Assembly: GCA_048882045.1 (NCBI GenBank)
Contig: JBHLRZ010000026.1
Location: 1-49,466, forward strand
Source of the DNA: Candidatus Thorarchaeota archaeon
GTDB lineage: Archaea; Asgardarchaeota; Thorarchaeia; Thorarchaeales; Thorarchaeaceae
Length of the DNA: 49,466 nucleotides
Direction: 5' to 3'
Part shown: positions 26,785 through 49,466 of the stretch, in pieces
Numbering within the stretch: the first letter of the stretch is position 1
Layout: every line of letters begins with the position of its first letter
Notes under the pieces: generated by a model
Databases searched by the model: none
What the model was told of the DNA's origin: nothing
Seen by the model: only the letters and a program-made list of their open reading frames with translations
Program-made: the position numbers and the translations under genes

Positions 26785-26845
26785 AAAGCTGTCAGAAAAT
26801 CGAGCTAGTGTTCCAAAAATCAGTGGAACCGCCTTTTCGCAATGC

Positions 26846-27012: not shown

Positions 27013-27071
27013 CACTGAACGACTTTTAGATTACATGAGACATGACCCTTCGGAGGAGAGGTAGTCGGACA

Positions 27072-28025
27072 ATGTCAAGGACAGACCGTAAGCAACCTGA
27101 TCGCTCAAAGAGCTCAGCAGGGTTCACATGTCCTGAGTGCGGAGGCCGTGAGGTCGTACAGGATCTCGAGAAAGGCGAACGCATTTGCGCCACGTGTGGA
27201 CTTGTGGTCAGTGAGCATAGGATTGACACTGGTCCTGAATGGCGAGCCTTCACGAGTGATGAGAAGGATGCAAGGTCTAGGGCGGGAGCCCCGACCAACT
27301 ACGCGATCCATGATAAGGGTCTTTCGACAATGATTGACTGGCGTGACCACGACTCTCAGGGGAAGAGGTTCACTGCCAAGAAACGTTCCGAGATATACCG
27401 CCTAAGGAAATGGCAGATTCGTACGCGAGTTCACAGCAGTGTGGACAGGAACCTGGCTCAAGCCATGTCGGAACTTGACAGGTTGTCTTCACAGTTGGGA
27501 CTAACAAAGAGCATCAAGGAATTGGCTGCGTTACTCTATCGAAAATTGATAGTCAGGAGACTTGCACGGAGCAGGTCGATTGACGCAATGGTTGGAGCAG
27601 CGATATATGCTGCCTGTAGACTGAGAAAAGCACCACGTTCCCTTGAGGAGATATCACGACACTCACGGGTGAGTAAAAAGAAGATAGGTCAACACTACCG
27701 CCTATTGGTCGAAAAGCTGAAGCTGAGAATGCCGATATCAGATCCAGCAAACTACGTCCCCCGCTTCATCACCCAACTGAACCTTCCTGGCAAGGTCCAG
27801 CAGAAGGTGCTTGAGATTCTTGATATGGCCAAGCAAAATCGAACACTGGTCACAGGGCGAGACCCAAGAGGTCTTGCAGCCGCTGCGATATACATCGCTT
27901 CGATCCTTATGGATCACAGAGTGACACAACGTGACATCGCGATGGCTGCAGGTGTGACTGAAGTAACGGTTCGGAACCGTTACAAGGAGCTCGTACAGAA
28001 GCTCAATATTACCATGGCGCCGTGA
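27072..28025 (+). CDS. tfb: transcription initiation factor IIB paralog 1
   Basis: CPEC...CATC Zn ribbon, DTGPEWRAF B-reader, two cyclin folds, GVTEVTVRNRYKEL. Start after GGAGG. Confidence 0.96.
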   Translation: MSRTDRKQPDRSKSSAGFTCPECGGREVVQDLEKGERICATCGLVVSEHRIDTGPEWRAFTSDEKDARSRAGAPTNYAIHDKGLSTMIDWRDHDSQGKRFTAKKRSEIYRLRKWQIRTRVHSSVDRNLAQAMSELDRLSSQLGLTKSIKELAALLYRKLIVRRLARSRSIDAMVGAAIYAACRLRKAPRSLEEISRHSRVSKKKIGQHYRLLVEKLKLRMPISDPANYVPRFITQLNLPGKVQQKVLEILDMAKQNRTLVTGRDPRGLAAAAIYIASILMDHRVTQRDIAMAAGVTEVTVRNRYKELVQKLNITMAP

Positions 28026-28120
28026 TAAACAAGTGTGTAGGAGTATAACGAATCTGTTTGAACATGAGGGTACTGGGACCTCGAAAAACCCAGAGCACGT
28101 TGGAGGGAACAAGTAAACAA

Positions 28121-29092
28121 ATGGCAACATCTAGGATAGATGAATCGACAAGAGAAGAAGTGATTTTGGATAGTCCTGGCATGACATGCCCCGATTGTGG
28201 TGGCAATGATGTCGTCAGGGACAATGAGAAAGGGGAGTTGATTTGTGCCACATGCGGTCTCGTGTTGAGTGACCATCGTATCGACACAGGACCTGAGTGG
28301 AGAGCATTCACCTCCGATGAGCGCGACACACGCGCCAGAACAGGTGCGCCAACAAGCTATGCACTGCATGACAAAGGTCTATCCACTATGATAGACTGGC
28401 GTGACAGAGACTCGAAGGGATCCGCCTTCACTGCAAAGCAGAGAGCGCAAATATATCGCCTCAGAAAGTGGCAGATCAGAACGCGAGTTCATAGCTCGCT
28501 GGACCGAAACCTAGCACAGGCAATGACTGAGATTGACAGGTTGTCCTCGCAACTAGGACTCTCGCAAGGACTGCGAGAACATGCTGCACGACTCTACCGC
28601 AAGCTCATAGCTGGAAGACTTTGGCGTAGTAGGTCGATCGATGCTACAGCAGCTGCTGCAGTTTACGCTGCTTGTAGACACAGAGGGTCGCCACGCTCGA
28701 TTGAGGAGATAGCCGAACACAGCAGGGAGAACAAAAAGAAGATATCAGCCCACTATAGGATGCTGGTCACCAAGCTGAAGCTTCGAATGCCTATCTCTTC
28801 CCCAGAGAACTATGTTCCAAGATTCATCTCAGATCTCAAACTCCCACCAGAGGTCCAGAGAATCTCTATGGAAATCATAGAAAAGGCAAAGCAGGTAAGA
28901 AACCTAGTCACAGGCAGAGACCCAAGAGGTCTGGCTGCGGCTGCAATCTATATCGCATCAATAATGACAGACAACAGGGTGACTCAGCGGGATATCTCTC
29001 AGGTTAGTGGTGTCACTGAAGTGACAATACGCAACCGCTACAAGGAGCTGGTGAGCAAACTTGAGCTCACTATGGCACCTGCTGCAGTATAG
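28121..29092 (+). CDS. tfb: transcription initiation factor IIB paralog 2
   Basis: Same motifs (CPDC...CATC, DTGPEWRAF, GVTEVTIRNRYKEL); closely similar to paralog 1. Confidence 0.96.
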   Translation: MATSRIDESTREEVILDSPGMTCPDCGGNDVVRDNEKGELICATCGLVLSDHRIDTGPEWRAFTSDERDTRARTGAPTSYALHDKGLSTMIDWRDRDSKGSAFTAKQRAQIYRLRKWQIRTRVHSSLDRNLAQAMTEIDRLSSQLGLSQGLREHAARLYRKLIAGRLWRSRSIDATAAAAVYAACRHRGSPRSIEEIAEHSRENKKKISAHYRMLVTKLKLRMPISSPENYVPRFISDLKLPPEVQRISMEIIEKAKQVRNLVTGRDPRGLAAAAIYIASIMTDNRVTQRDISQVSGVTEVTIRNRYKELVSKLELTMAPAAV

Positions 29093-29101
29093 GCTTAGTC
29101 A

Positions 29102-29135
29102 GGCTGCAGGAAACTGCAGCCACTCCTTCTTTTTC
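29102..29135 (+). terminator. hairpin terminator after the tfb pair
   Basis: GGCTGCAG-GAAA-CTGCAGCC (8-bp stem, GNRA loop) followed by pyrimidine/T tract CTCCTTCTTTTTC. Confidence 0.7.
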
Positions 29136-29185
29136 AACGATTGATTCATAAGTTCTGACTCCGAGCTCATAGTAGGTAGAGGGAG

Positions 29186-35042: not shown

Positions 35043-35819
35043 TTGAGCTTGGTCATTCTCAAGATGATAACCCAACTCGAAGACCAGTTGATGGCAGCAT
35101 ACAGAGAAGCGAATGGTCGCGGTATGATAGACGTGACCCTACCACTGCAAGTCATGTTCAGTGACGCGGACAGGACTGTCCTAAAGGCTCGACTACGATT
35201 CAATGGGTCTGAGAAGGATGCTAGTCTCATCCTCATCATCGGGCTGAGGAGTGACATTCTCTCTCCGTTCCAGCGATTTGAATCAGACAGGCAAGGTAGG
35301 TTCGCACCTTGTGACATTCCAGGGATCGTGCCTGGTCTGGCGTTGATGGTCACCTCGATCAATTCAGGACTTGCACTAAGTGCTATCGCAAAGGATGATG
35401 CCACGAGATTCATCCTTGTGTTCGAGGGTCTTGCGGAAAGAAAGGGGGGAAGTCTCCGTGCACTCTCAGCGGTAGTGAGGAATTACATGAAGAAGTGGAG
35501 TGAGTGGACTGAGGTCCTCATGACCACGATTCGAAGAGACCCTGTTGTTTCGGGATGGGATCTGGATTGGAGGGAGTACTTGGCAGGAGAATCAGGGTTT
35601 GTTACGATGAACTGGTTCAAGCCAATGACATTCTCGGAGAGAGAGATAGCCCTGAATAGAGTGGTGGTGTCATCGAGGGCACTTTTGGCGTCTGTGCTCA
35701 GCAGCAGTCAGCTGAAGGACCCTATGATAGTTGGTCTTAGAGAGTGGTTGGACAGACTAGAACCACTTCCAGAGGTCATCAGTGGAGTACAGGCTAGTGA
35801 AGAGGAGGTTGAGATCTAA
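35043..35819 (+). CDS. hypothetical protein, first gene of the large recombination operon
   Basis: 258-aa ORF; its stop overlaps the next start (TAATG). Confidence 0.75.
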   Translation: MSLVILKMITQLEDQLMAAYREANGRGMIDVTLPLQVMFSDADRTVLKARLRFNGSEKDASLILIIGLRSDILSPFQRFESDRQGRFAPCDIPGIVPGLALMVTSINSGLALSAIAKDDATRFILVFEGLAERKGGSLRALSAVVRNYMKKWSEWTEVLMTTIRRDPVVSGWDLDWREYLAGESGFVTMNWFKPMTFSEREIALNRVVVSSRALLASVLSSSQLKDPMIVGLREWLDRLEPLPEVISGVQASEEEVEI

Positions 35820-36286
35820 TGCAAGTAGACGATTTTACTCGAAGTGTTCCCCGAACCCCGTTCAACATGCCACAGGTCTCCTGGCTTGCAGGAGCCGCGG
35901 CTGGAATGAGGATTGGAGGGAAGAAAAGTCCAGCGTGGCTTTGGGATGCTTTCTTCAACGACATCACTGAGATGATCCACCTCGTAGGTGATGTCGAGCC
36001 CGTTGATCCGGGCTTTGCACCAAACGAAGGAGACGGTCTCATCGGATCAGCCTTTGATGCGCTGGGTGGCTACATCAGTGTCACTGGTGAGATTACACCT
36101 GAGGGGCTCTACTTCAGGGTCCCAGTGAGATGTCAGAAGCAGGTGAAGGAGCTTCTGAATGGGATTACAGTACATCGTTCGGATGGAGAGATCATCGTTC
36201 CAGAATACGACATGCCAGCGTTTCTGAGACTTATACCAGTAGAAGGACCCCTGGCAGAGTGGCTTGAACAGGAGGAGATTGCATGA
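35819..36286 (+). CDS. hypothetical protein resembling a catalytically dead two-motif LAGLIDADG domain
   Basis: WLAGAAAGMR and LIGSAFDALGGYISV align by eye to LAGLIDADG motifs; GGAGG SD. Confidence 0.45.
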   Translation: MQVDDFTRSVPRTPFNMPQVSWLAGAAAGMRIGGKKSPAWLWDAFFNDITEMIHLVGDVEPVDPGFAPNEGDGLIGSAFDALGGYISVTGEITPEGLYFRVPVRCQKQVKELLNGITVHRSDGEIIVPEYDMPAFLRLIPVEGPLAEWLEQEEIA

Positions 36287-37362
36287 CAGAGCTTGAAGCC
36301 GTACAAGGAATCGGGCCGGCTGTAGCCAAGAAACTCAGGGACACCTATATCACAACTGCAGAGTTGCTGGCCGTCCAAAATCCTATCGAGTTGATGAAGA
36401 AAACAAAACTGGGAGAAGGAACCACAGAGAAAATCATCAAGAATGCAAGGTCTCTTGTTGGCAAGTTCGGTTTTCGCTCTGGGCTAGAAATTGAGAAAGA
36501 GATGGAAGAGATGCCACGCCTCACCACAGGAGTTGAGAAGATAGACACTGCACTGCGTGGAGGAATAGAAATCGGCTCGATCGTTGAGTTCTTTGGTCCA
36601 GCTCGAGGTGGGAAGACACAATGGGTTTCACAGCTGGCAGTAACCGCTCAGCTCCCGAGGGAGCAGGGAGGGCTCGAAGGCAGGGTCCTGTGGCTCGACA
36701 CCGAGAGCTCGTTTAAACCGTGGGTGATCCGAGCGCAGGCCATACGTCACGGTCTCGATCCGGATATCACATTGGGTAACATCGGGAGAGCAGAAGTCGT
36801 GCTATCTGGGCAGATAACGGAGATCTTCGAGAGCGTCCCGCAGATGTGTGCTGAACAGGACTACAAGCTCGTTGTGATTGACTCCTTCACAGGACTGTTC
36901 AGAGCCGAATACACTGGCTTAGAAAATATGCGGATCAGACAACAGGACATGAACAATTTGCTCAACCAGATGCGTAGAACTGCAACTGCCACTGGATGCA
37001 TCTTCGCTTACACAAACCAGGTCATGGCCAAGATCTCAACCTATGGTGGAAATCCGAACGCTCCTGTAGGCGGACATATAGTGTCCCATGCCAGTGACTA
37101 CAGGTTCTATACGAGAAGGACAAAGTCCGATGTGAGGAAGATCGAGCTTCAGGACAATGCGGGCTTGCCAGAGTTCGATGCCGAGCTTGTTGTCGGGTGG
37201 GGAGGATTATTCGCTGACTCCAAGACCAAGAAGGAGATTGAGCCACAGGTTCTCGAGTATTTCGAGAGACGTGGAGAAACCATTGACGTAGACAACGATG
37301 ACGCACCTGAGGAAGAAGCCGTCATTGAGGCTGAGACTGTTTCGGCAGGTGAGGGTGCGTGA
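36283..37362 (+). CDS. radA: RadA/Rad51-family recombinase (divergent paralog with acidic tail)
   Basis: N-terminal HhH (VQGIGPAVAKKL), FRSG polymerisation motif, Walker A GPARGGKT, LDTE, VVIDS, NQV...PVGGHIVSHAS. Confidence 0.9.
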   Translation: MTELEAVQGIGPAVAKKLRDTYITTAELLAVQNPIELMKKTKLGEGTTEKIIKNARSLVGKFGFRSGLEIEKEMEEMPRLTTGVEKIDTALRGGIEIGSIVEFFGPARGGKTQWVSQLAVTAQLPREQGGLEGRVLWLDTESSFKPWVIRAQAIRHGLDPDITLGNIGRAEVVLSGQITEIFESVPQMCAEQDYKLVVIDSFTGLFRAEYTGLENMRIRQQDMNNLLNQMRRTATATGCIFAYTNQVMAKISTYGGNPNAPVGGHIVSHASDYRFYTRRTKSDVRKIELQDNAGLPEFDAELVVGWGGLFADSKTKKEIEPQVLEYFERRGETIDVDNDDAPEEEAVIEAETVSAGEGA

Positions 37363-37814
37363 CCCGGGAGCGAGGGATGTTCAGAATCTACAGATGTGCA
37401 AAGTGTCGAAACATAGGATATCTCGTTGTTGAGAATGAAGAGGAAACCTCCCATTGCAGCCTTTGCCATGCTGTAGTTATTCATGAGGCAGGTATGGTCT
37501 ACGCTGCGACGATACAAGAAGCCCAAGCAGGCGTCCGTGAGCTGGTCATAGAGTCGCAGATGTCGAAAGTGAAGGCTGCAGGTAGTAGTCGAGGTCTCGG
37601 ACTCAAGCGCCGAGTTTACAATATAGTTGAATCACTTGTCGACCTCAATCGGGGACGACCTGTGAGTATTGAGAATGTGATGAGAGAATGCAGTGAGGCA
37701 AACATCGACCTCGGTCGAGCTATGAGATTTTTGGACTCCCTTGAGTCAGAGGGAATGATCCTGAATGATGGCATTTCGGTTTCACTGACAGCGGAGGCCT
37801 GGTCTGATGTCTAG
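37359..37814 (+). CDS. Zn-ribbon plus C-terminal winged-helix protein
   Basis: CAKC...CSLC; C-terminal VSIENVMRECSEANIDLGRAMRFLDSLESEGMI resembles RPA32/MCM-type wH. Confidence 0.7.
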   Translation: MTRERGMFRIYRCAKCRNIGYLVVENEEETSHCSLCHAVVIHEAGMVYAATIQEAQAGVRELVIESQMSKVKAAGSSRGLGLKRRVYNIVESLVDLNRGRPVSIENVMRECSEANIDLGRAMRFLDSLESEGMILNDGISVSLTAEAWSDV

Positions 37815-38433
37815 CACTGATGAACAAGAACATGTCTGGGTTTCAACCACTCCTCCGAATGTCCCGGGGAGCTCGATGATCAACCTGGTCAATCTACTGT
37901 TGCGAGAAACCGCACATCGCATCACAGTGTTGGATAGAGCAAGAGGACCAGACCCTGAGCTCTATGTTGTCACAAGGGTCGACTGGAAACATCCTGACCT
38001 TGAGAAACCAATGCTTCCCCAGTTGCCTAGTCTGCTATCGCTGCTAGAAACTCTAAGAGGTTCCAAGGGAGTTCCGAGAGAAATCAGATTGAATAGTGCT
38101 GAAGGAGTGGCGGTGTATCTCTCCACTGGAGTCAGGGTCTCATCGTTACCCAAGGACCCAAAGACAGCTGTGCAGGGACTCATGGCAATCATAGAAGAGT
38201 CGTTGGAACATCTCTTCTCCACAATGCGAGAGGTGGAGAAGTGGTTCTGGAAGGCTGCCCGTCAGAAAGGATTCAGTCCGGAGATAGTAGAGAGAATGGC
38301 TCGAGAAGAGGTCGGGTATAACTCTCGCGAGTTGATGCTAAGATTTCAGAGAATCCTGCACAAGTTCTTCTCACTGAAGTTCAGGATATACCAGGCAGAA
38401 GAACGATTGAGGGTGGAGGAGGAGTACGATTGA
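37807..38433 (+). CDS. hypothetical protein
   Basis: 208-aa ORF coupled to both neighbours; GGAGG SD. Confidence 0.75.
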   Translation: MSSTDEQEHVWVSTTPPNVPGSSMINLVNLLLRETAHRITVLDRARGPDPELYVVTRVDWKHPDLEKPMLPQLPSLLSLLETLRGSKGVPREIRLNSAEGVAVYLSTGVRVSSLPKDPKTAVQGLMAIIEESLEHLFSTMREVEKWFWKAARQKGFSPEIVERMAREEVGYNSRELMLRFQRILHKFFSLKFRIYQAEERLRVEEEYD

Positions 38434-40388
38434 CCACTGCGTTGACCGATCCAATGGCCTTGTTCCCTTATACACCAAGGCCTTCACAGGAAAAAGCGGT
38501 CGGTCTCGCAGCTGATGTCTATTCAAGAAAGACTGTCGGACTTTTGAGCGCTGATTGTGGAATCGGGAAGACCATTGCAGTCCTATCAGGCTATCTAGCA
38601 GCACGAGGACACGACGAGTCCGCCCGTTTGTTTGCCTTGACACGGACTCATTCACAGTCAAAGGTGTTTGAGAGTGAGCTCGAAGTCCTCAGATCGGTTA
38701 TGCCAAGGCTTACAGCAACAACCATGGTCAGCAGAGTCCATGTCTGTCCGATAAGGCACCAGATGGAGAATCTCAGCTCAACGGGTTTCATGAGAGCCTG
38801 CGCCAAGATGATCAAGACAGGTGCCTGTAATTACTACTGGGGATTCTACAAGAAACAGACAGACGGTCGTACAGTTATCAGGGATGAAATTAGAGGAACA
38901 ATAGATGACCTTCTAGACACGGGAGTTGTTACTCGAGAACGTGTCGAGGAACGGGCACAGGAGGAGGGTGTCTGTCCCTATGAAATGATGAGATGGTGTG
39001 CAAGAAGAAGTAGGGTCATCATCGGGCCCTATTCGTATTTATTCCGCTCTCGCATTCGTACCGCCCTCCTTGCATCATTAGGAGTAGCCCTTCAGGATGT
39101 GGACATTCTTGTAGATGAGGCACATAATCTCCCAGCACATGTGCTTGATGCTGAAACAGCTCATCTTAGTAACGATGACCTGAGATGGCTCAAGGAGAAC
39201 CATCAATTAGTGACCAGAGAAACTGGTCTGAGATGGATTCGAGAGGTCATCGACTTTCTTTGGGAAACCTTGATGGTAAATTTGGACAAGATGTACAATC
39301 GAAAAGAGCGTGTCTTAGACAAGTGGGACGTGTCACCCAGGTTCATCAAAGAAGATGACCTTGACTTGCTTCATGCTTCTGGTCGCCCAGGAATGAACGA
39401 TCCAGAGAACGCAAACCTGATTGAAACCCCGCTTGACAGACTCATCGAATTCCTGTATGCCGCTCTTAGAGCTGCAAAGAGTGACGGGTGGCATGTCACG
39501 CTCCAGAATACAAAATCATGGGAAGACAACATCCCATCTACAAGTTCAAAGCTTACAATACAACCACTGAACTCTTCGGGTCTCACTGCGCCGATACTGC
39601 GTGGGGCACGTGCCGCTGTACTGATGTCAGGAACTCTTAGGCCCCTTGAGTACTATGCCAGACTCCTTGGAGTCTCAGGTGCCATGGTCGAGAGTCTAGT
39701 TAGTCCGTATCCAAGGGGGACCAGACTCGTTCTTATTGACAAGAATCTCAATACAAAATACCAAACAAGAGGACCAGACCTTTGGAGAGAACTCGCCCTC
39801 AGAATATCCATCGCTCTCAAGGCAATGCCAGCAAACAAGAGTGCTCTGATTGCGTTTCCAAGCTACCAGATGCTTCACGAAGTCATGTCATATTCCATTG
39901 ACACTGGTTTTCGAGAGGTGCTTATTGAGACCAGAACTGAACGTGTCGAAACCCTTGCTGAGGCAATTTCTGAAAAGCCCCATGCAGTGTTCTGTGTCTA
40001 TGGAGGAAAGTTCTCTGAGGGGATAGATCTAGTGAGTGAGGGTTCCAGTCAGATAGACCTGATAATTGGAATCGGGATTCCTTTTGGCCCACCCACCAGC
40101 TACCAGGTTGCTCTCCAACATTGGTATGACTCTCGCTTTGGTGATGGCTCAGGATTCTACTATGGATCAGTCATTCCTTCGATAAGACAGGTGGCTCAAC
40201 TGATAGGACGACTGAGGAGAGCTCCGACTGACACTGGAGTAGTAGTGTTATTGGATAACCGTTTCATCAAACACCTGCAGGTGTTCGGAGAGGAGATAGT
40301 GTCAGACGTCTGGCCTTATCGAGATGTTGAGGAACTCGAACTAGCAATCAGCCAGTTTGTCAAAATGCAGGAGGATTTGGTACATTGA
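38430..40388 (+). CDS. XPD/Rad3/DinG-family Fe-S SF2 helicase
   Basis: FPYTPRPSQ Q-motif, ADCGIGKT Walker A, four Fe-S cysteines (VCP, RACA, GACN, VCPYE), DEAHNL, MSGTL, GKFSEGID, QLIGRLRR. Confidence 0.93.
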   Translation: MTTALTDPMALFPYTPRPSQEKAVGLAADVYSRKTVGLLSADCGIGKTIAVLSGYLAARGHDESARLFALTRTHSQSKVFESELEVLRSVMPRLTATTMVSRVHVCPIRHQMENLSSTGFMRACAKMIKTGACNYYWGFYKKQTDGRTVIRDEIRGTIDDLLDTGVVTRERVEERAQEEGVCPYEMMRWCARRSRVIIGPYSYLFRSRIRTALLASLGVALQDVDILVDEAHNLPAHVLDAETAHLSNDDLRWLKENHQLVTRETGLRWIREVIDFLWETLMVNLDKMYNRKERVLDKWDVSPRFIKEDDLDLLHASGRPGMNDPENANLIETPLDRLIEFLYAALRAAKSDGWHVTLQNTKSWEDNIPSTSSKLTIQPLNSSGLTAPILRGARAAVLMSGTLRPLEYYARLLGVSGAMVESLVSPYPRGTRLVLIDKNLNTKYQTRGPDLWRELALRISIALKAMPANKSALIAFPSYQMLHEVMSYSIDTGFREVLIETRTERVETLAEAISEKPHAVFCVYGGKFSEGIDLVSEGSSQIDLIIGIGIPFGPPTSYQVALQHWYDSRFGDGSGFYYGSVIPSIRQVAQLIGRLRRAPTDTGVVVLLDNRFIKHLQVFGEEIVSDVWPYRDVEELELAISQFVKMQEDLVH

Positions 40389-40987
40389 ATTTCAAAGACA
40401 TTTCAGAACTCCGATGGTTCGGACTCTCTCTATTCATTATAATATTGATTCTGAAAATAGGGCTTTCACTAAATGATGTCATTGGGATTGCACTGATTGG
40501 CACAGGTCTAGTAATCTATGTCTACACCTTCATCCTCGACATGCGCTCAATCGAATCACCCAGAGTACTCTGGGATGATGCTAGAGGGATTATGGCTACT
40601 GTTCGACCATGGCAGGTTGAAGTGTGTGCTGCACGACTACTAGGTAGTGTACCCCTGGGAATTGACCTATCTCACTCAGCAAGAAAAGTGCTTCAGGCAA
40701 TGCACTCACGTTTCCTAAATGAAGAGGGAGGATCTCTTCTTTTCTTCATATCACGTCCTATGGGTGATGGGACCACAAAAGTGGGTCTACTAGTCAGGAG
40801 AACTGCGTTTCGACTGCCAAGTTTGGTACCTAAGTTGGATCACCTTGTGCAACTCCTGATGGCAGATGTCATGATCCTTGAAGGTGCGATGCGTGCTGCA
40901 TATCCACACTTACCAGTTGAGAGAGCTGAGAAGCAAGATATACTCATAGTGAATAAAGGAGGTATAGAATCAATTGTCCCGCATTGA
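40385..40987 (+). CDS. membrane protein (two N-terminal TM helices plus soluble domain)
   Basis: WFGLSLFIIILIL and VIGIALIGTGLVIYVY; TTGA overlap, GGAGG SD. Confidence 0.75.
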   Translation: MNFKDISELRWFGLSLFIIILILKIGLSLNDVIGIALIGTGLVIYVYTFILDMRSIESPRVLWDDARGIMATVRPWQVEVCAARLLGSVPLGIDLSHSARKVLQAMHSRFLNEEGGSLLFFISRPMGDGTTKVGLLVRRTAFRLPSLVPKLDHLVQLLMADVMILEGAMRAAYPHLPVERAEKQDILIVNKGGIESIVPH

Positions 40988-41279
40988 GTATCGCTCAGGT
41001 GTGGAGATTCCGTTTGATGTCAGCGAAGAAGACATCATGAGGGCTCTTGAAATTGGTCATGGGTACAAATGGACTGTCCTCATTAAACATCCGGTAGTTG
41101 TCGCACATGGCGCACCAACCATAGGGAATATGCCAGAGCTGTTGATGTCGGGAGATTGTACTTTGATTGTTGATGGAGGCGATCCTGCATATGTTGAACG
41201 TCTCAGACAGGTTCTAACAATGCTACAGAGACATTCTCAGAGTCACATAGCTAATTCGGAGGGAGTGACTGTTGGGTAA
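40974..41279 (+). CDS. small hypothetical protein
   Basis: 101 aa, AGGAGGT SD, overlaps both neighbours. Confidence 0.7.
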   Translation: MSRIEYRSGVEIPFDVSEEDIMRALEIGHGYKWTVLIKHPVVVAHGAPTIGNMPELLMSGDCTLIVDGGDPAYVERLRQVLTMLQRHSQSHIANSEGVTVG

Positions 41280-43617
41280 ACGTCTGATTCTTGGAACAGA
41301 ACCAGAGGTTGACCCTCTACAGGAGATTTCAGGCAAATCAACACAGATTACAACTGGAACGGAAATCAGATGGGAAAGCAGAGAACTTGGTCGTCCATTG
41401 GCCCGCATCTCAATCATATCGTTACTAGCAATTGCAATTGGATTTGCATTTCCGATTCTCGTGACCTTTACTGCAGGAATCTTCCTGTTCTTTCACTATG
41501 TTACGCCAAAGATCAGAGAGCAACGAGAGATCTCGCAACTACTCCAGGGATCCTGGCAGGAGATACCAGAGGATGATGTGTCATATATTGTGAATCCTGA
41601 AAATGTTGAGCTACGAGGAACAGGACCTGCACATTATTCGGTTGCAATGGATCTTGGAAAAGCAAGTCCTACACTGTTGGGAAATGTTGGATCTCTAGTA
41701 AGATCTATCGACACCTCAAATGGTTTTGGACTCTATGTTACGATGAGGAAAGAGAAGATAACTAGAGCGATGGATGAAGAAAAAATCTCCAACATGTTGG
41801 AGGGATATCTCACAGCACTATCAAAGGGGGAATTGGATGCCTATCTTACAAGAAGAAGCGGGCTCTGGGCTACACATGTGTCAATAATTGGACATATGAA
41901 GGATGATGCACAGGTAGATACCTTTGAAGCATCAGTAAGAGGAGCAGTCCCTGAGAGGGATTGGAAACGATTAAAGCCAGTTGAACTCCATTCAAGGTTA
42001 ATTCAACAAAAGTTGGACAGACAACAAGGATGGTTCTATGCAGTTGGCTCTGAGCTATCAGAATGGTTGGTTCAGCTAAGGAGTGAATTAGCTGCTGAAG
42101 TAGGGAGCAATATTCCGGGTCAATTCATAGCTCCGATTAGAAGCAGACCTGACGACTATAGATTGGGAGTCATACTAAATCCAGATACTCTTCAGACAGG
42201 TCCATCTGCTGGATTAGCTCATAGAGATTTAGAAGCAGGCACCCTACTGTGTGGAGGAACAGAACAAAGTAGAAACAATGTCATAACGTTGATCACAGAC
42301 GAACTACTCAAGGCTGGGAAACGGGTCATTGTAGTCACTGGATCTTCGACACTTGCAAACTTAACTGTCTTGACTGACGCGTCTGTTCATCTGGAACTTG
42401 GTAGAGACCTCGTATTGAATCCGATAGATGCAGAAGGTGTATCACGAACAGATTATGTTCCTCTTTTGATCTCTGCTTTACAGGTCGTTGCAGCTCAGGA
42501 TCTGCGAGGGGCAGCTGAACTAGAGATTGCAATTGGTCGTGCAGTATCATTAGGTAATGCTACTCTCGCTGATGTCAGATTTACATCAGATTTTGATAAT
42601 CCCGAGTCAATAGACGATAGATCACAAACTGGAAACCTAAAACCATCTAAAAAATCGTTGATAGGAATGGAAGCGATACGGTCTCTGCATATGGGACCAG
42701 CTGCAAGAGCATTCTATGGAACACAGACTGTTCCTACAAGGAGACTCGCGGATCCGTCATTGACAGTAATCAGAGTGTCTCTTGGTTCTACCGGATTGGA
42801 TAGTTTCGCTTGGAATTTGATGTGCATGAAGTTGGCTGGTTTGAATCCAGATCCGAATGTGGTTGTTATTCTCGATGGTGCTGAGAATATGAGAATCAGA
42901 AACCGTCGATTCATGAAGCACGATTCGTTCTCTGAACGGCTTCTGAAGAACTTGGTTAGGAGAGGACCTCTTGTGTTGTCTCTCGAGCATCCAGCAGATA
43001 TGGCACCTGGTGCAATTGGAGTTCTAACTTCTTGTGTATCGTTGAGACTCAGGGAATCAGTAGATATACACTATGCCGCAGATTTACTCGGACTTAACGT
43101 CATTACAACAGGTATGCACACCAAAGCGAGAATCTCTCCAAGGGAGTCATCCTTCTTGAGAGTAATGGATGACGATACTGTACTTTTGGTTCATGATGGC
43201 ACAGAGACCTGTCAACCTGTTAGACTGGCGACACCACCGCTACTCGAACCAAGAACCAGTGGCGACGTGTCAGATCGAGTTGACAAGCTTGTACCAACAG
43301 AGGCTAAGCATCAGTCCATACACGAACGGACTCTTCTCGACACAGTGGCTGGAGATGGTAGAAACCTCGCTATCATAGTATTGAAGCTTCTTGAGAGGTA
43401 CGAGCCCCTCACAGAGGAAGCAGTTAGGAGATTTGTGATCGCGAATGGAAACGATCCAAACCCAGATGTTGAAGGGATTCTAGCAAGACTGGAACACGCG
43501 AGCATGATACTACGTGGACATGAAAACCACAGTGGAGTATCTTATGCTAATTTCAGAATCACAATGAAAGGATCAATGGCTCTGAAGCAGTCCGATGAGG
43601 TGGGTGCTATTACGTGA
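41272..43617 (+). CDS. membrane-anchored HerA/FtsK/VirB4-superfamily protein with degenerate ATPase motifs and C-terminal winged helix
   Basis: N-terminal TM hairpin; TLLCGGTEQSRNN at the Walker A position; LNPID; VVVILDGAEN at Walker B; LVLSLEHPADM...CVSLRL matches the hhhATQ-P-D..N..h-FRL region. Confidence 0.65.
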   Translation: MGKRLILGTEPEVDPLQEISGKSTQITTGTEIRWESRELGRPLARISIISLLAIAIGFAFPILVTFTAGIFLFFHYVTPKIREQREISQLLQGSWQEIPEDDVSYIVNPENVELRGTGPAHYSVAMDLGKASPTLLGNVGSLVRSIDTSNGFGLYVTMRKEKITRAMDEEKISNMLEGYLTALSKGELDAYLTRRSGLWATHVSIIGHMKDDAQVDTFEASVRGAVPERDWKRLKPVELHSRLIQQKLDRQQGWFYAVGSELSEWLVQLRSELAAEVGSNIPGQFIAPIRSRPDDYRLGVILNPDTLQTGPSAGLAHRDLEAGTLLCGGTEQSRNNVITLITDELLKAGKRVIVVTGSSTLANLTVLTDASVHLELGRDLVLNPIDAEGVSRTDYVPLLISALQVVAAQDLRGAAELEIAIGRAVSLGNATLADVRFTSDFDNPESIDDRSQTGNLKPSKKSLIGMEAIRSLHMGPAARAFYGTQTVPTRRLADPSLTVIRVSLGSTGLDSFAWNLMCMKLAGLNPDPNVVVILDGAENMRIRNRRFMKHDSFSERLLKNLVRRGPLVLSLEHPADMAPGAIGVLTSCVSLRLRESVDIHYAADLLGLNVITTGMHTKARISPRESSFLRVMDDDTVLLVHDGTETCQPVRLATPPLLEPRTSGDVSDRVDKLVPTEAKHQSIHERTLLDTVAGDGRNLAIIVLKLLERYEPLTEEAVRRFVIANGNDPNPDVEGILARLEHASMILRGHENHSGVSYANFRITMKGSMALKQSDEVGAIT

Positions 43618-45809
43618 TGGCTGTGTCAGATGTTTCCATAAAGGTAGAGCAGATGATTGGGAAAGCAGGCATTAAACCTAGAGGAATCCAGACTATCGCA
43701 AAGGACAAGGGGTTGTTAGATGGAAAGAGTATGATGGTCTGTAGTCCCACTGGCAGTGGGAAGACACTGGTCGGAGAGATGGCACTACTCAGGGCTGTGA
43801 CTACTGGTAGGAAAGGGATGTTCTTAGTACCTTTGAGAGCTTTGGCTGTCCAGGTTACACAAATCTTGAAGGAACGGTATGAGGTATTTGGAATAGCAGT
43901 AGGACTCAGTAGTGGTGATTTCCAGAATTCTGGAGAGGACTTGGTGGATTATGACATTCTTGTCACTACGTATGAAAGGGCGGATTCACTATTACGTCGT
44001 GGAGTTGAATGGATTAGCGAGATAGGAACCATAGTAATTGACGAGATTCAGACCCTTTCTGACCCTGGTCGTGGAGCTCGTCTCGAGAGTCTGATACTCA
44101 GACTCAAACGAATTTCATCAGAACTCCAAATCATTGCACTCTCAGCAACAATCGGAGCTCCTGACGAACTAGCCGAATGGATAGGTTGTGATCTCATCGA
44201 GTCTGATGAGCGTCCTGTTCCTCTTGTTTGTCAAGTGATTTCAGCGGCTAACAAGAATCACAGCATCAAGAACTTGGTCATGTCGACGGTTCAGGGTGAT
44301 GGTCAAGCAATTGTCTTCAGCAGGACCAGGAGGGAAGCTGAAGCACAGGCACTTCGACTCGCAGAAGATGTCGGACGCCAATTCTCCACAAAGGAGAAAG
44401 ACCAACTGGATTTGGAACTCCAATCCGTAGAGAACTCCACAGTGAACATACCATCTGATGTCAGAGCCCTACTTCATGATGGCACAGCATATCATCATGC
44501 AGGTCTGGACTATCAGACAAGACGACTCATAGAGAAATTATTCAACAGGGGGCTCGTTCGTTTGATTTGTTCAACATCGACGCTTGCTGCAGGGATGGAC
44601 TTACCTGCCAGAACTGTGGTGCTCTCGAGTGTGAGGTCACCCCGTGACTATAGAAATTACATGACTGCAAACAGTGTTCATCAGATGCTTGGAAGAGCTG
44701 GTCGTCCTGGCCATGATCGAGTCGGTTTTGGTGTGATAGTTGCTGGGAGTACTGGCGAAGCAGACATGATCAAAGAACGTTACTTCGACAGAATTATTGA
44801 GGAGGATGGAAAGACAGAGAATCTCATTCCTAGATATAATCCAATATCCAGTGTTCTAGGAGAGCCTAATGCTCTGGCTGAGCAGTTGCTAGTCATGTTA
44901 GATATGTTGACCTCGGCTTCAATTGATGATGTTGAAAACGGAATATTGGGCGAATCATATCTGATCCATTGTGCAATCCGAGATACACAGGCTCCTATGA
45001 GAGTCTTACATCTCGGAGAGATATCAGCAGAAGCTGCAATCGAGAGCCACGCACTACCCGACACCATTCACTCGGCACGAAAAGGCGTACTTGGCGAAAC
45101 TAGGATTCGTGAACAGCATGAAACAGTCATAGGAGGGCTTGTAGCGGGTTTTCAAGGCGGACAATTCACCTGCCGATTCTCTGCAAGACTCTCAGCGGCA
45201 GGTACCTCAGAAGGAGCAATGTGCTCATGCGGTAAGCCAATGTCTGAATCTGGGATACTTTGTCACCATCTTGTGGCTTTAGGTATGAGTGCCGCAAAGG
45301 AACTAGGCTCACTTGCTGACTACGTTATTCCACTGGCGCTGTCCGAAACTTCGCCACTAGGGCTCTTGATAAGGCTGGGACTGGTCGAGGGAGATGAGGA
45401 GAGTAGGCTAAAGCCTACACGACTTGGTAGAGCTACGAATCGACTCTATCTAAGTATTGCAACAGTGAGAGAACTCCTTGCTCTCATTCCAACTACTGAG
45501 GATAGCAGGATGCTTCTCTGGTTACTTCGCCACCTAGTTTCTCTCGAGAGTGGATTAGGTCTTGATGATTCATTTGACAACATGCTGGCTGCATTGGTTT
45601 CAACTGACATCCCATTGAAACAGATTGCAGACCAGAATGACATCAGTCTGGGGGACATGTATGGCTTGATTGAGACCTCTAGATGGCTCCTTCATTCGAT
45701 TGCTGTTGTAGCAGAGCTAGGAGGTCTCTCGAAAGTACATGGGATGTCAAGAAGTCTTCTGGAAGCAATAGAAGACAAATTCGGAAATCGAGGAGAACAC
45801 GACAGATGA
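43614..45809 (+). CDS. Hel308/Ski2-like SF2 helicase with an inserted SWIM zinc finger
   Basis: SPTGSGKT, PLRALA, TTYE, DEIQ, LSATI, YHHAGL, TSTLAAGMDLPA, QMLGRAGRP; CSC-x10-CHH at 45222-45269. Confidence 0.92.
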   Translation: MMAVSDVSIKVEQMIGKAGIKPRGIQTIAKDKGLLDGKSMMVCSPTGSGKTLVGEMALLRAVTTGRKGMFLVPLRALAVQVTQILKERYEVFGIAVGLSSGDFQNSGEDLVDYDILVTTYERADSLLRRGVEWISEIGTIVIDEIQTLSDPGRGARLESLILRLKRISSELQIIALSATIGAPDELAEWIGCDLIESDERPVPLVCQVISAANKNHSIKNLVMSTVQGDGQAIVFSRTRREAEAQALRLAEDVGRQFSTKEKDQLDLELQSVENSTVNIPSDVRALLHDGTAYHHAGLDYQTRRLIEKLFNRGLVRLICSTSTLAAGMDLPARTVVLSSVRSPRDYRNYMTANSVHQMLGRAGRPGHDRVGFGVIVAGSTGEADMIKERYFDRIIEEDGKTENLIPRYNPISSVLGEPNALAEQLLVMLDMLTSASIDDVENGILGESYLIHCAIRDTQAPMRVLHLGEISAEAAIESHALPDTIHSARKGVLGETRIREQHETVIGGLVAGFQGGQFTCRFSARLSAAGTSEGAMCSCGKPMSESGILCHHLVALGMSAAKELGSLADYVIPLALSETSPLGLLIRLGLVEGDEESRLKPTRLGRATNRLYLSIATVRELLALIPTTEDSRMLLWLLRHLVSLESGLGLDDSFDNMLAALVSTDIPLKQIADQNDISLGDMYGLIETSRWLLHSIAVVAELGGLSKVHGMSRSLLEAIEDKFGNRGEHDR

Positions 45810-47431
45810 CAATCGTAAGGGAAGAGGACGAAACAGCGGAAGGAGAAGATCTAGAAAAAGGACATTCAGCAGAAGCAACAATTGCTCACGACATAACTGA
45901 TGCACTAAGATTGACGGATCATTTTACAGCTAATTATCCCAATGGTCTGACCCTGGGCGTGCGGTTGGAGGCTGTACCTGGAACGAGAGGTGTTCATGTC
46001 GATACAGTCTACGTTCTAGACTTGCGAGAGGCATCCTTTGGAAAGAGTAGTCTTGCAATGAGAGCTGCAGTTCTTGAAAGCATCAACAGGTCCCTGATCC
46101 GGGTACTTGGAGATGTCGGGCTAGAGGAGCTTATGCATGAACAATCAGTCTTGACACCGTGGGGGCGTGTGCGGCTTCCACTGCTCAGGGGAGCAAAGGG
46201 CAAGTCCTCATCGCTCATTCATGAAACACGTACAGTGTATGTCATAACCGAAGGGACCAAGCCTACCATGGATCTGTCATGGCTCACAGATAGTGGACGT
46301 GTCGTTACTCCAGAAGAATTTGTACTCATCAGAAAGAGTGACACACGTTCTAGACTACCGAATCTTAAGAAGTCCGTCACAGCTTACAAATGGGGACTCC
46401 TTGAAAACGGTTTCACTCGTGGTTGGTTTGGTGTACTTGCTCTTGCAAGTCTAATCGTTGCTGTTTCTGCAATCCTCATTGTTCTCATACAAGGTTCTGG
46501 ATCGCTCATATTGCCACTTGTAGCTAGTGCACTCTCAGTTATTGTAGGAGGTTGGCTTCTCAGGTCTTCAAGAAACTCGATAAATGGATTTGTTACAACT
46601 GTTTCTAACGAACAAGAATTGTTGGATCGCATAGGAGATGCTGAGAGAATCTCTCAATCAATCATCACCAATGAGGACAAGCTGATCTTGATTGGAGACC
46701 TCAATTTCGTCGTATCACCCCTCATTGCTGCTGCAGGGAAGTTTCTCGAAGAGGGAAATGTAGACGCCGCTGTCAGTTCAGCATGTGCAGTGCTCGATGA
46801 GTGTGTCAGGCTAGCGCCTATCGAGAGTGGCACAAATTCATTGCTCATGGAATCAGCGGATGAAGGGCTTCGCAAATTTATGGGATTATTCGAAGACTTG
46901 GGTGGTGTAGAAGAGAAGGAGGCACTAGCACTTGCTTATGTTGGTCTAACTGGTCATATGACAAAACCGATTGATTTTGATGAAGCTGTTACACACCTCG
47001 CTGAGCTCAACAATGCCCTCTATCATGTCGGAGCTCTCAGACCGGATATTAAGGAGGGGATTGACAGTCACCTGAATAAACGAGCCATGATGCAAACAGT
47101 AGAAGCGATAGACAAGGAGCTTTCTCAAGAAGAACCACAAATCCCAGAGGCTCCCCCATCAGGATCTGAAGAGGTGTTCCAACCAGAAATGGAGAATCCA
47201 GTAGAAGTTGAATTAAACTCGATGATTCGTGGAGCTTCAGTTGACAAATCTGAAGAACCCAAAGAGCAAACTTCTGATTTGGATTTAACAGCAGCTGATA
47301 TTGTTTCTGGAAGAGCGAAAAAACGGAAGAAGAAAATCAAAGACACAAAGCAACTCTCTCTGTTGGACGACCTCGATCTTGGTGAGACCGCCAGTGGTGT
47401 TGGAGAGGAGCGTGAATCTGCAAGTGTCTAG
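45806..47431 (+). CDS. two-TM membrane protein with acidic tail, basic patch and QLSLL motif
   Basis: True start is likely ATG 45806 (GAGGAG SD, ATGA overlap with the helicase stop). Central TM hairpin; KKRKKK...KQLSLLDDL. Confidence 0.75.
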   Translation: MTIVREEDETAEGEDLEKGHSAEATIAHDITDALRLTDHFTANYPNGLTLGVRLEAVPGTRGVHVDTVYVLDLREASFGKSSLAMRAAVLESINRSLIRVLGDVGLEELMHEQSVLTPWGRVRLPLLRGAKGKSSSLIHETRTVYVITEGTKPTMDLSWLTDSGRVVTPEEFVLIRKSDTRSRLPNLKKSVTAYKWGLLENGFTRGWFGVLALASLIVAVSAILIVLIQGSGSLILPLVASALSVIVGGWLLRSSRNSINGFVTTVSNEQELLDRIGDAERISQSIITNEDKLILIGDLNFVVSPLIAAAGKFLEEGNVDAAVSSACAVLDECVRLAPIESGTNSLLMESADEGLRKFMGLFEDLGGVEEKEALALAYVGLTGHMTKPIDFDEAVTHLAELNNALYHVGALRPDIKEGIDSHLNKRAMMQTVEAIDKELSQEEPQIPEAPPSGSEEVFQPEMENPVEVELNSMIRGASVDKSEEPKEQTSDLDLTAADIVSGRAKKRKKKIKDTKQLSLLDDLDLGETASGVGEERESASV

Positions 47432-48080
47432 ACATCGATTGATAGAACAGCTGGGTCTCCGAGGTCTGATTCACATCTGGGGAGAAGCTGGTTCAGGAAA
47501 GACGATGTTAGCAAGCAAGATAGCTGCTGATGAGTCAAGGTGTTCAAAGGTCGAGTGGATAAACACGGACTCAAAGCAAAGCTTTGTAGGTCGACTGAAA
47601 CTGGATATTAATGATCAGGGAGGCAATTTGGACAATGTAATTGTTTCAATTGTAAATGATAGGAGTGCAATCAGAGAACTGATTCTTAACATGGGAAATG
47701 TCGTCGAACCAGGGGTCTCACTTGTGGTGATTGACCCGATAACAAGAGTCTTGGATATGTCTAGGAAAGACCCAAACCTTTGGGGGAGAGAGATGGTCGA
47801 GGTGGCTCTTCCGTCTTTGGTTGGTTTGGTGAAGAAGAAGAACGTGAATGTCATCATAACAAGCGAAGCTCGAACCTTGGACGAACAGACAACTGTTGCA
47901 GTCCATCATAAGACGATATCGAAGTGGGCGGACTATGAGCTTCATATAATTAAAAGCCGGGATGGTGGAACTTCTCAAATCATTAGGGAAGATGAAGACA
48001 CTGTGCAGATGGGATTGCTAGGTCTACAAGAGAATTCTCTTGTTCTTACTTCAAGTCATTCCAGTGTTCTGGAGGTGTGA
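47424..48080 (+). CDS. RadB-like RecA-fold ATPase (no N-terminal HhH domain)
   Basis: IHIWGEAGSGKT Walker A, WINTD, LVVIDPIT, IITSE. GTG start at 47424 or 47412. Confidence 0.8.
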   Translation: MSRHRLIEQLGLRGLIHIWGEAGSGKTMLASKIAADESRCSKVEWINTDSKQSFVGRLKLDINDQGGNLDNVIVSIVNDRSAIRELILNMGNVVEPGVSLVVIDPITRVLDMSRKDPNLWGREMVEVALPSLVGLVKKKNVNVIITSEARTLDEQTTVAVHHKTISKWADYELHIIKSRDGGTSQIIREDEDTVQMGLLGLQENSLVLTSSHSSVLEV

Positions 48081-49049
48081 GTGTTGTTTGGAAAGGGTCT
48101 GATAAAGATCATTGGATTGATTATCACGGGGGCAATCGCACTTGCAGGAGGAGCAGAACTTCTGGCATCAGTCGTTTCGGTTGTTCTATCCTTTCGATCT
48201 GGGAATCCATTACCACTCGTAACTGTTGTCATCATAGCAGTCGTACTTCTACGTCTTGTAAAGCGCCAGTCTGAGAATACTCCTGTCAAATTGATATTGA
48301 ACATTGCTTCGTATGCGGCTTCCGGATATGTAGCTGTGGTGACTTTTGTCATAGGACTACCCTACGGACTCGTTGCAGCAGTCGCGACATCAGTCATTGC
48401 AGTAGTTCTCTGTTCATTTATGGGAGACCCTTCATCAGTGTTTGAGCAGCTGCAGCTTGGATTGCCAGGTTTGTTTCTGGGAGTAAGAATTGATGGACTC
48501 ACCAAGAGAGTAATACCTGTTGGAAATGGCATGTCATTTGCTCTCAATAAGATCCACAATCTGATTTTGATCGACAACTCAGAGAGAGAGAAGATTGTGC
48601 AATTGATGCGTGACAGACCACGGCTACCGGTCTCACTTACTCATTTTGAGGACAGCGATGTGTTATTTATCACAACTGAAGACCAAGTACTTGTTGAAAG
48701 TGTCAGGTCCCTTCTTGTCTCAGCTCGGATTGACACGAACGGACCTCCCAGTCCTCTCCTCGGTGAAGTGATTCAAATGATTCCAATCATAGATGAGAGG
48801 AACGGTCTCTTTACGAGGAACTACAGATTGGCTAGAGATGAAAAGTCAGTGTCTGACTTATTGTTAACCTCACCAATACGGATGATAGTCTTCCCCTCTG
48901 ACTCAGGTCCAATGATTATCGTCCCAGATAGTGAGTCCACCGGACTCAATGTAGAAACTCTACCTACAGGTCATGAACACGATATCTTGTTGAATCGTGA
49001 TTTCAAATCGTTAATGGAGGAGAGCAAACCCGTTGAGAGTTCCACTTGA
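48081..49049 (+). CDS. membrane protein (about four N-terminal TM helices plus soluble domain)
   Basis: Hydrophobic first ~110 aa; GGAGGTG SD; abuts the RadB-like gene. Confidence 0.75.
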   Translation: MLFGKGLIKIIGLIITGAIALAGGAELLASVVSVVLSFRSGNPLPLVTVVIIAVVLLRLVKRQSENTPVKLILNIASYAASGYVAVVTFVIGLPYGLVAAVATSVIAVVLCSFMGDPSSVFEQLQLGLPGLFLGVRIDGLTKRVIPVGNGMSFALNKIHNLILIDNSEREKIVQLMRDRPRLPVSLTHFEDSDVLFITTEDQVLVESVRSLLVSARIDTNGPPSPLLGEVIQMIPIIDERNGLFTRNYRLARDEKSVSDLLLTSPIRMIVFPSDSGPMIIVPDSESTGLNVETLPTGHEHDILLNRDFKSLMEESKPVESST

Positions 49050-49466
49050 ATCGATTAACGAACCTCAGAGCCTTGAGATTCGGTTCACACCTAGAGTCCT
49101 TGATAGGACATTTGGGAGTCTAATTCAACCTAGGTCTATCAGTGTCCTGCATGGTGATGAGCGAGCTCCTCTCAGTATTCTTGCTCATACCATCGCAGTT
49201 TCGGTCGCAAAGACCAATCATGATGCAATATGCATCTTTCTTGATTCTGGATCAAACTATAGTCCCGCGTTAGTCAGAACATTATCAACTGACAACGAGG
49301 TTCTAGAGAGGATATTAGTCGGGAATGTTATGGGCCTCTCAGACGTTCTAGAATTGATTGGCAACCTAGATCCATTGTCAGAGGTACCAATCATCATCTT
49401 GGACAATCTGACTGGTGCACTGAATCTCACAGGTGCTCCTGGATCAAAAGGAAGACAAAGAGAACT
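49033..49466 (+). CDS. inactivated RadA/RecA-like protein (truncated by window end; absent from the ORF track)
   Basis: Manual translation from TTG 49033: MRVPLESINEPQSLEIRFTPRVLDRTFGSLIQPRSISVLHGDERAPLSILAHTIAV...CIFLDSGSNYSP...VLERILVG...IIILDNLT...RQRE. RecA-fold layout with decayed Walker A. Confidence 0.75.
   Translation, partial: MRVPLESINEPQSLEIRFTPRVLDRTFGSLIQPRSISVLHGDERAPLSILAHTIAVSVAKTNHDAICIFLDSGSNYSPALVRTLSTDNEVLERILVGNVMGLSDVLELIGNLDPLSEVPIIILDNLTGALNLTGAPGSKGRQRE

Follow-up and report, generated by a model that had tools for sequence, protein, structure and literature searches.

A conserved, membrane-anchored VirB4-type pseudo-ATPase encoded in a recombination-gene operon of Thorarchaeota

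The window analysed here is a 49,466-nucleotide (nt) stretch of DNA from a Candidatus Thorarchaeota archaeon (assembly GCA_048882045.1, contig JBHLRZ010000026.1, positions 1 to 49,466 of the forward strand; contig C26 in the following). It carries, at 41272..43617, the gene for a predicted membrane protein of 781 amino acids (aa) that is the subject of this study, referred to as the target. The gene starts with a TTG codon preceded by a GGAGGG Shine-Dalgarno site, overlaps a gene for a 101-aa protein by 8 nt at its 5' end and a Hel308-like gene by 4 nt at its 3' end, and is present as a single copy in its genome. Searches of Pfam, NCBIfam, PADLOC and PHROG returned zero matches for the protein (E<=0.01), which thus falls into none of PF03135, PF19044 and DUF87. 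A first-pass annotation of this DNA had described the product as a catalytically dead HerA/VirB4-like ATPase with a membrane anchor and a C-terminal winged helix, and every string that it quoted (CGGTEQSRN, ILDGAE, SLEHP and the tail running from PLTEEAVRRF to RITMKG) was found in the translation. The fold, motif and conservation data presented below agree with that description. The gene was divided into the following features:

41272..43617, forward strand: whole gene, TTG start, 781 aa, frame intact; VirB4-like pseudo-ATPase, anchored in the membrane and ending in a winged helix
41272..41394, forward strand: predicted cytoplasmic peptide at the N-terminus; motifs GxxPExDP and IRWxxR conserved, W34 and R37 unchanged in all sequences; low predicted local distance difference test (pLDDT) score
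41398..41532, forward strand: transmembrane (TM) helical hairpin, residues 43-87, from hydropathy and AlphaFold2 (AF2) helices; in the VirB3 position of VirB3-VirB4 fusions
41557..42057, forward strand: VirB4-type N-terminal domain (CagE_TrbE_VirB-like fold), residues ~96-262, from a domain model and fold matches
42034..42147, forward strand: linker between the N- and C-domains, the most conserved segment of the protein (FYAxGSELSEWLVQLRSELAxEVGSNIPGQFxAPIR)
42133..43275, forward strand: VirB4/HerA-fold P-loop domain without catalytic motifs, residues 288-668, from structure matches
42250..42276, forward strand: degenerate Walker A, CGGTEQSRN, residues 327-335, from the alignment; family consensus GGxxxxR
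42856..42885, forward strand: degenerate Walker B, NVVVILDGAE, of which ILDGAE is residues 532-537, from the alignment
42949..42999, forward strand: RRG, and LEHP where the TQxP sensor would be expected (SLEHP, residues 571-575), from the alignment
43333..43605, forward strand: PadR-like winged helix with the invariant wing GHExHxGVSYxNYRITMKG, from the alignment and a profile search

The AF2 model of the target was built from a 30-sequence alignment and had a mean pLDDT of 75. It comprises the TM hairpin (residues 43-87), an alpha/beta N-domain (~96-262), a linker (269-288), a P-loop-type domain (~290-660) and a winged helix (688-780). The hairpin, which a hydropathy scan marks at residues 41-79 and which the model resolves into helices at 43-59 and 61-87, was retained in all homologues; the linker had low pLDDT and was poorly modelled. 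The top Foldseek matches of the whole model were TrwK/VirB4 of plasmid R388 and HerA (E 3e-12 to 7e-11). Alignment of the P-loop domain with VIA-align, for which all figures refer to AF2 residues 288-660, gave the highest score with the VirB4 C-domain of T. pseudethanolicus (4ag5; Z 28.2, root-mean-square deviation (rmsd) 2.8 Å over 324 residues), followed by HerA (4d2i; Z 25.0), DndH-C (7es4; Z 24.8), TrwB (1e9s; Z 20.7) and FtsK (6t8o; Z 16.8). The placement of the protein in the FtsK/HerA superfamily at first pass is thereby borne out at the level of fold. Aligned over its whole length with the same program, TrwK spans residues 96-666 of the target model.

A single domain can dominate a list of structure matches, and the N-domain (residues 92-292) was therefore also folded separately, with a model pLDDT of 82. 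Its best Foldseek match was residues 208-426 of TrwK/VirB4 (prob 1.0, TMq 0.46-0.52), and a scan of 48,161 chains that was independent of Foldseek again led to TrwK/VirB4 (Z 7.9, 173 residues aligned), while the runner-up chains covered only ~85 residues of the domain, a ferredoxin-like sub-fold. All ten of the ten nearest cluster sets in the ESM Atlas were VirB4/TraG-type proteins of type IV secretion systems (T4SS), several of them carrying PF03135 (CagE_TrbE_VirB), with TM scores of 0.61-0.63 over ~170 residues and an rmsd of ~4 Å. Only the second half of the VirB4 N-terminal domain (NTD) is represented in the target; among the N-domain matches listed the best were VirB4 and there was no HAS-barrel entry. 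The C-terminal 98 residues form a PadR-like winged helix, as judged by profile matches to PDB entries 3l7w (E 5e-4), 4esb and 7wjp. The Pfam PadR model matched 10 of 34 family members and HTH_34 matched five of the 34, every score lying below the Pfam gathering threshold. A profile of the whole protein, compared with PDB sequences, gave only marginal HerA matches (E ~0.1) over residues 523-607, the Walker B/sensor region; matches to fusions of G-protein-coupled receptors over the TM region in the same comparison were judged to be spurious. Because its N- and C-terminal domains both match VirB4, the modelled protein is VirB4-type, a sharper assignment than HerA-like.

The motifs on which catalysis by such a fold depends are degenerate in the target. 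At the Walker A position, where GxxxxGK[ST] would be expected, the protein reads CGGTEQSRN: the sixth-position glycine is lost, the lysine has become arginine and the serine or threonine is lost. GK[ST] occurred in none of 25 aligned representatives, which were drawn from several Asgard families and included split and fused forms, so that the search for homologues with intact motifs returned none. Members of the Thor clade have GGxxxxR at this position, with C327, G328, G329 and R334 invariant or nearly so, and in more distant members of the protein family GGxxxxR is itself lost. The Walker B (hhhhDE) reads VVILDGAE, with the aspartate mostly kept and the position of the catalytic glutamate variable across the family, and the TQxP-type sensor is replaced by LEHP or a similar sequence. 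R564, in the RRG motif, is kept in at least 90% of sequences and is a possible remnant of an arginine finger. In the AF2 model the beta-strand stops at residue 327 and the helix begins at residue 331, leaving a loop of ~3 residues, which would be too short for a phosphate-binding P-loop. Loss of the motifs for nucleotide binding and hydrolysis predates the divergence of the Asgard lineages.

The protein has nonetheless been kept under constraint since that loss. A word-indexed search found 113 full-length homologues, mostly of ~780 aa and 38-100% identical to the target, the named ones being from Thorarchaeota; full-length orthologues reach down to 37% identity. When 1.84 billion representatives were searched exhaustively, 61 homologues were obtained, among them distant relatives that are full-length and share 17-25% identity. 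Compared with an orthologue of 73% identity, the closest available, the rate of non-synonymous change (dN) was 0.20 and that of synonymous change (dS) was saturated, for which reason no dN/dS value is given; dN was lowest in the linker (0.05), intermediate in the P-loop-fold domain (0.17) and highest in the TM and N-terminal part (0.26). About 70 positions are invariant in the 30-sequence alignment, among them the segment SELSEWLVQLRSELAxEVGSNIPGQF, NPxD, TLAD, FYG, K520, R592/D598, the KARxSxRES loop and the winged-helix wing. Within the linker the residues W265, Q268, E272, L273, E276, G278, P282 and F285 are invariant, and the linker is a candidate partner-docking motif. The target is therefore no decaying gene: it encodes a protein that has lost catalysis but remains conserved, with purifying selection acting strongly on it, and the motif loss recorded at first pass is itself conserved and no peculiarity of this copy.

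A profile of the family matched 226 of the 400 genomes of the phylum and 61 of 85 in the organism's own family. The protein takes several forms: single proteins of ~780 aa in Thorarchaeota, split proteins in which the N-part measures 282-325 aa and the C-part 520-535 aa, and proteins of ~1260 aa in which the module of TM hairpin and N-domain is duplicated.

The target gene is the ninth of a series of overlapping genes, of which two entries are needed for what follows:

35043..49466, continuing on contig C51, forward strand: translationally coupled operon of ~15 genes with the target, defined by overlapping same-strand genes
40385..40987, forward strand: o7, 200 aa, TM hairpin and shortened paralogue of the target's N-domain module (hhalign prob 76%, E 2e-5, colinear)

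The operon begins with genes for a 258-aa protein, a 155-aa protein, a RadA paralogue, proteins of 151 and 208 aa, an XPD paralogue, the 200-aa TM protein o7 and the 101-aa protein. The target is followed by a Hel308 paralogue, a TM protein of 541 or 582 aa, a KaiC/RadB-like ATPase, a 322-aa protein with four TM helices and a RadB-like gene. Contig C26 ends at 49466, and C51:10-1355 carries the rest of this degenerate RadB-like gene and a FEN1/XPG-like paralogue. Six of the proteins have no family assignment, and four, including the target, are membrane proteins. The G+C content was 0.49-0.51 over the first part of the operon (36001-40000) and 0.43-0.47 in most of the remaining window.

Every recognisable enzyme of the operon is an extra copy in the genome. 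Better-scoring copies of RadA (C3:72401), XPD (C11:13190) and Hel308 (C2:67195), presumably the housekeeping ones, lie elsewhere, and there is a second FEN1-family gene at C19:14283-15428. The RadA paralogue of the operon (36283-37362) has a Walker A motif of GPARGGKT; it barely passes the cut-off of one NCBIfam RadA model (267 vs 259 bits) and fails that of another (239 vs 361), and its Pfam Rad51 score is 191 bits against 316 for the canonical RadA at C3:72401. The better-scoring XPD gene adjoins a RadB-like gene and lies 10 kb from a large superfamily 2 (SF2) helicase (C11:12986-16440 and 26335-29175), and this group of genes on C11 is a second, smaller repair-gene cluster.

The o7 gene lies two genes upstream of the target. 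It was matched in 55 of 86 family genomes, and on every contig for which matches to both genes were listed it directly preceded the target. This arrangement parallels the duplicated N-modules of the ~1260-aa forms and the forms in which N and C are split, and the presence of two N-modules for each C-domain seems to be a recurring theme. Comparison with hhalign found no relation between the N-domain module and o1, o2, o4, o5, o11 or o13, nor any relation in an all-against-all comparison of the operon's uncharacterised proteins (o1, o2, o4, o5, o7, o8, o11 and o13). The start listed for the larger TM protein, 45683 (ORF 45683-47431, where ORF is open reading frame), overlaps the Hel308-like gene by 126 nt, and its orthologues fit a start at ~45806 and a length of 541 aa. 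In this protein two TM helices lie centrally and a KKRKKK patch occurs within the acidic tail. Profile searches of the PDB with the 541-aa and 322-aa membrane proteins gave compositional TM matches only, and no family or fold match was obtained for the 541-aa protein.

The surroundings of the target were compared by inspecting ~35 loci. The whole operon together with a flanking GH3 gene is syntenic at two loci where the target orthologue is 39-45% identical (L001 and L002), and most of it is kept in the same order at L004, where identity has fallen to 25%. At loci outside this family, and outside Thorarchaeota, part of the gene set recurs near the homologue: RadA-like and M28-like membrane protein genes at L011 and L005, FEN1-, Hel308- and KaiC-like genes at L016, RadA-, FEN1-, KaiC- and Hel308-like genes at L071 and L072, and XPD- and RadA-like genes at L070. 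The ~1260-aa proteins belong to another large Asgard family (L010, L017 and L054-L069) and are surrounded by a conserved module of their own, which includes a ~700-aa membrane protein with a helix-hairpin-helix DNA-binding domain at nearly all of the 19 loci inspected, two TM proteins of ~260-290 aa and, at nine of the 19, a divergently transcribed Hel308-like gene; several of these loci are cut by contig ends. A distant lineage (L003:6535-14240) represents a different operon type of the same family: small TM proteins and an M50-like peptidase are encoded upstream of an 850-aa pseudo-VirB4, and after it come an active HerA/DUF87-like protein (873 aa, GGTNMGKS) and then an 831-aa protein of no recognised type.

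The first-pass annotation had also proposed that the target needs an active partner. The operon encodes active P-loop proteins of other families and no active protein of the VirB4/HerA type, and six DUF87 matches were found elsewhere in the genome. The closest active relative, encoded at C49:3591-6680 and 1029 aa long, matches the family profile with E 1e-15 and reads GDTGRGKT, VVLEEAH and ATQKP at the three motif positions. Its gene adjoins one for a 923-aa protein with many helix-turn-helix (HTH) or sigma-70 region-4-like domains (C49:830-6680, locus L053), a protein for which there was no match among the ORFs of any inspected locus, L003 included. The active paralogue is sporadic, occurring in 43 of 86 family genomes and 11 of the 23 high-quality ones; it often occurs in several copies, with as many as nine matches in one genome, and mostly on short contigs; on account of these three features the gene is probably part of a mobile element or accessory system. 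Seven near-complete genomes carry the target and lack a paralogue of this type (G313, G315, G319, G321 and G387-G389), and the C49 protein was rejected as an obligate partner on this phyletic pattern. The proposal of an active partner from the same family is therefore not supported as an obligate rule. At L003 the pseudo-ATPase does adjoin an active HerA-like gene, so that hetero-oligomers may exist in some lineages.

Among known proteins the target most resembles VirB4/TrbE/CagE (TrwK of R388 and VirB4 of T. pseudethanolicus), which it matches in the folds of both its N-domain and its C-domain. In VirB3-VirB4 fusions, VirB3 occupies the N-terminal position at which the TM hairpin of the target is found. 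The target differs from VirB4 in that its Walker A, Walker B and sensor are all degenerate, in that it lacks the first ~200 residues of the NTD, and in the addition of a PadR-like winged helix. It is moreover chromosomal, vertically inherited and located within a recombination-gene operon, and library scans recognised no VirB2-, VirB6- or VirB8-like genes near it.

The Ced and Ted systems of Crenarchaeota are domesticated, T4SS-like systems with VirB4-like ATPases that import DNA for repair (PMC9905601, PMC11868833). CedB and CedD consist of a TM segment, a VirB4-NTD-like domain and a VirB4-like ATPase and are required for this import, and their N-domains are reported to form one VirB4 NTD between them (PMC11868833); Ted loci carry Rad50 and HerA-like genes (PMC9905601). 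The domain order of these proteins, as given in the published description of their architecture (PMC11868833), is that of the target, the two Ced proteins with partial NTD modules are comparable to the target and o7, and a link to homologous recombination is common to Ced/Ted and the target operon. CedB, CedD and TedB are, however, described as ATPases, whereas the corresponding motifs are lost in the target; no CedA/TedA channel and no CedA1/TedC pilin was recognised near the target with the libraries used; and the recombination enzymes are encoded in the target's own operon. Ced is inducible by DNA damage.

The C-domain of HerA, whether in HerA-NurA end resection or in the Sir2-HerA and DUF4297-HerA defence systems, has a fold like that of the target (Z 18-25), and HerA provided the only sequence-level PDB matches (Walker B/sensor region, E ~0.1). 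The N-domain of the target, however, matches VirB4, with no HAS-barrel entry among its listed matches, the protein is membrane-anchored and catalytically dead, and library scans found no NurA, Sir2 or DUF4297 partner in the operon. FtsK/SpoIIIE has the same layout as the target, with a membrane anchor, an FtsK/HerA-superfamily P-loop domain and a C-terminal winged helix, and the last of these, the FtsK gamma domain, binds DNA; the structural match to FtsK is weaker (Z 16.8), the winged helix of the target is PadR-like and its motor motifs are missing.

Based on these comparisons, we propose that the target is the non-catalytic, VirB4-derived membrane core of a helicase-driven machine for DNA uptake or exchange coupled to recombination, a function that we infer from fold and gene context and to which we give an even chance of being right. 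The protein would no longer be a motor and would instead serve as the membrane-embedded structural core, or an adaptor, of a machine for DNA processing that is encoded on the chromosome. Membrane anchoring of the complex would fall to its N-terminal modules, to o7 (40385-40987) and to the operon's two other membrane proteins. The catalytically dead C-domain is probably oligomeric, as in VirB4 and HerA, and in combination with the invariant linker and the winged helix could dock DNA and/or the RadA, XPD, Hel308, RadB/KaiC and FEN1 paralogues. ATP-driven movement of DNA would come from the adjacent Hel308-like and XPD-like helicases and not from the VirB4 fold, and the overall role would be to take up or exchange DNA across the membrane in direct linkage to homologous recombination, making the system a functional analogue of crenarchaeal Ced/Ted. 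We rate uptake or exchange as the most likely role because the ancestry of the fold lies in trans-membrane transfer and because Ced and Ted, the closest archaeal analogues, import DNA for repair and cluster with recombination genes (PMC9905601, PMC11868833). A further proposition, which we hold tentatively and would sooner doubt than assert, is that the operon encodes an undescribed, vertically inherited Asgard membrane machine, constructed on the dead VirB4 scaffold, that passes DNA through the membrane or captures it there and hands it directly to a dedicated second toolkit for homologous recombination. This toolkit would comprise the RadA paralogue, the Hel308-like and XPD-like helicases (acting as the motor), the RadB-like mediators and the FEN1-like nuclease.

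Several observations weigh against the proposed uptake or exchange machine. The VirB4-type subunit is an active ATPase in the known Ced, Ted and T4SS machines, and we know of no description of a dead VirB4 core. Sequence libraries and PDB profiles revealed neither a VirB6/CedA-like channel nor a VirB2-like pilin in the operon, none of whose four TM proteins matched a library entry. The winged-helix domain is mildly acidic (pI 5.5) and may for that reason bind protein instead of DNA, and the GGxxxxR motif may retain some non-hydrolytic binding of nucleotide. A match to the target profile is absent from three near-complete family genomes (G341, G346 and G332), which means that the system is not strictly universal, and a match to o7 is absent from four of the 23 high-quality ones.

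The main rival, unlikely but deserving of serious consideration, is that the target tethers or organises repair and recombination of the cell's own chromosome at the membrane without any DNA crossing it, the dead VirB4 ring and winged helix holding broken or replicating DNA and the RadA, Hel308, XPD and FEN1 paralogues in place. A tether that holds DNA for recombination was already suggested at first pass, and that suggestion would fit the conserved neighbourhood of RadA, XPD, Hel308 and FEN1 paralogues, which serves this explanation equally well. With a dead ATPase no transport by the target subunit is required, and the library scans of the operon, which found no channel or pilin homologue, are in keeping with a tether. 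The ancestry of the protein is, however, specifically that of VirB4, a component of trans-membrane DNA or protein transfer, four membrane proteins in one operon are more than a simple tether needs, and Ced and Ted, which are the nearest precedents in archaea, import DNA (PMC9905601, PMC11868833).

We consider it improbable that the P-loop domain acts as a regulatory switch that binds a nucleotide or phosphate ligand without hydrolysing it, perhaps in a hetero-oligomer with an active VirB4/HerA-type subunit. Walker A Lys-to-Arg mutants of other P-loop NTPases commonly retain nucleotide binding, and the near invariance of G328, G329 and R334 in the Thor clade, the retention of R564 at the position of the arginine finger, the active HerA-like neighbour at L003 and the active paralogue in the target's own genome would all be in keeping with such a switch. 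Yet the Mg-coordinating Ser/Thr and the Gly before the Lys are lost, the modelled loop has ~3 residues, distant family members lose even GGxxxxR, and the active paralogue is missing from the seven near-complete target-bearing genomes named above.

Less plausible again, and in our judgement very unlikely, is a component of anti-virus or anti-plasmid defence, or a domesticated mobile element, working in the manner of Sir2-HerA or DUF4297-HerA with the helicases and the FEN1-like nuclease as effectors. HerA defence complexes are among the structural matches (8xav, 8wld, 8zir and 8j4u) and a content of helicases and nuclease is typical of defence systems. PADLOC nevertheless gave no match for any of the ten operon proteins scanned, the target and nine others, and PHROG none for the target or the operon's uncharacterised proteins. 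Unlike genes of defence islands, the target is single-copy here and broadly present with conserved flanking genes, the truly sporadic and multicopy VirB4-like gene being the separate one on C49, and the RadA and RadB paralogues indicate strand exchange, not degradation. A decaying ATPase pseudogene, a reading for which the loss of catalytic motifs alone would speak, was rejected as having next to no chance of being true, given the intact frame of 781 codons, more than 100 full-length orthologues with identities as low as 37%, dozens of invariant positions, a dN (0.20) far below the saturated dS and translational coupling to the neighbouring genes.

Full-text literature searches found no published description of the target family or of its operon. 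The target is a VirB4-derived pseudo-ATPase, and its surrounding system may represent a machine of a new kind. The family itself, which is annotated only as "hypothetical" and has no Pfam or NCBIfam model, is here named and mapped into domains. Type IV secretion is widely held to have VirB4 as its signature ATPase, and a lineage that has kept the whole VirB4 architecture long after the loss of catalysis shows that the structural role of the fold can be separated from its role as a motor. The fixed link of the target to private copies of RadA, Hel308, XPD and FEN1 makes it a testable candidate for DNA exchange or repair at the membrane in Asgard archaea, and the compact, syntenic gene set makes reconstitution and structural work feasible. 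If the proposal holds true, the closest prokaryotic relatives of eukaryotes would possess a T4SS-derived, chromosomally encoded DNA-exchange system in which helicases, and not VirB4, serve as the motor.

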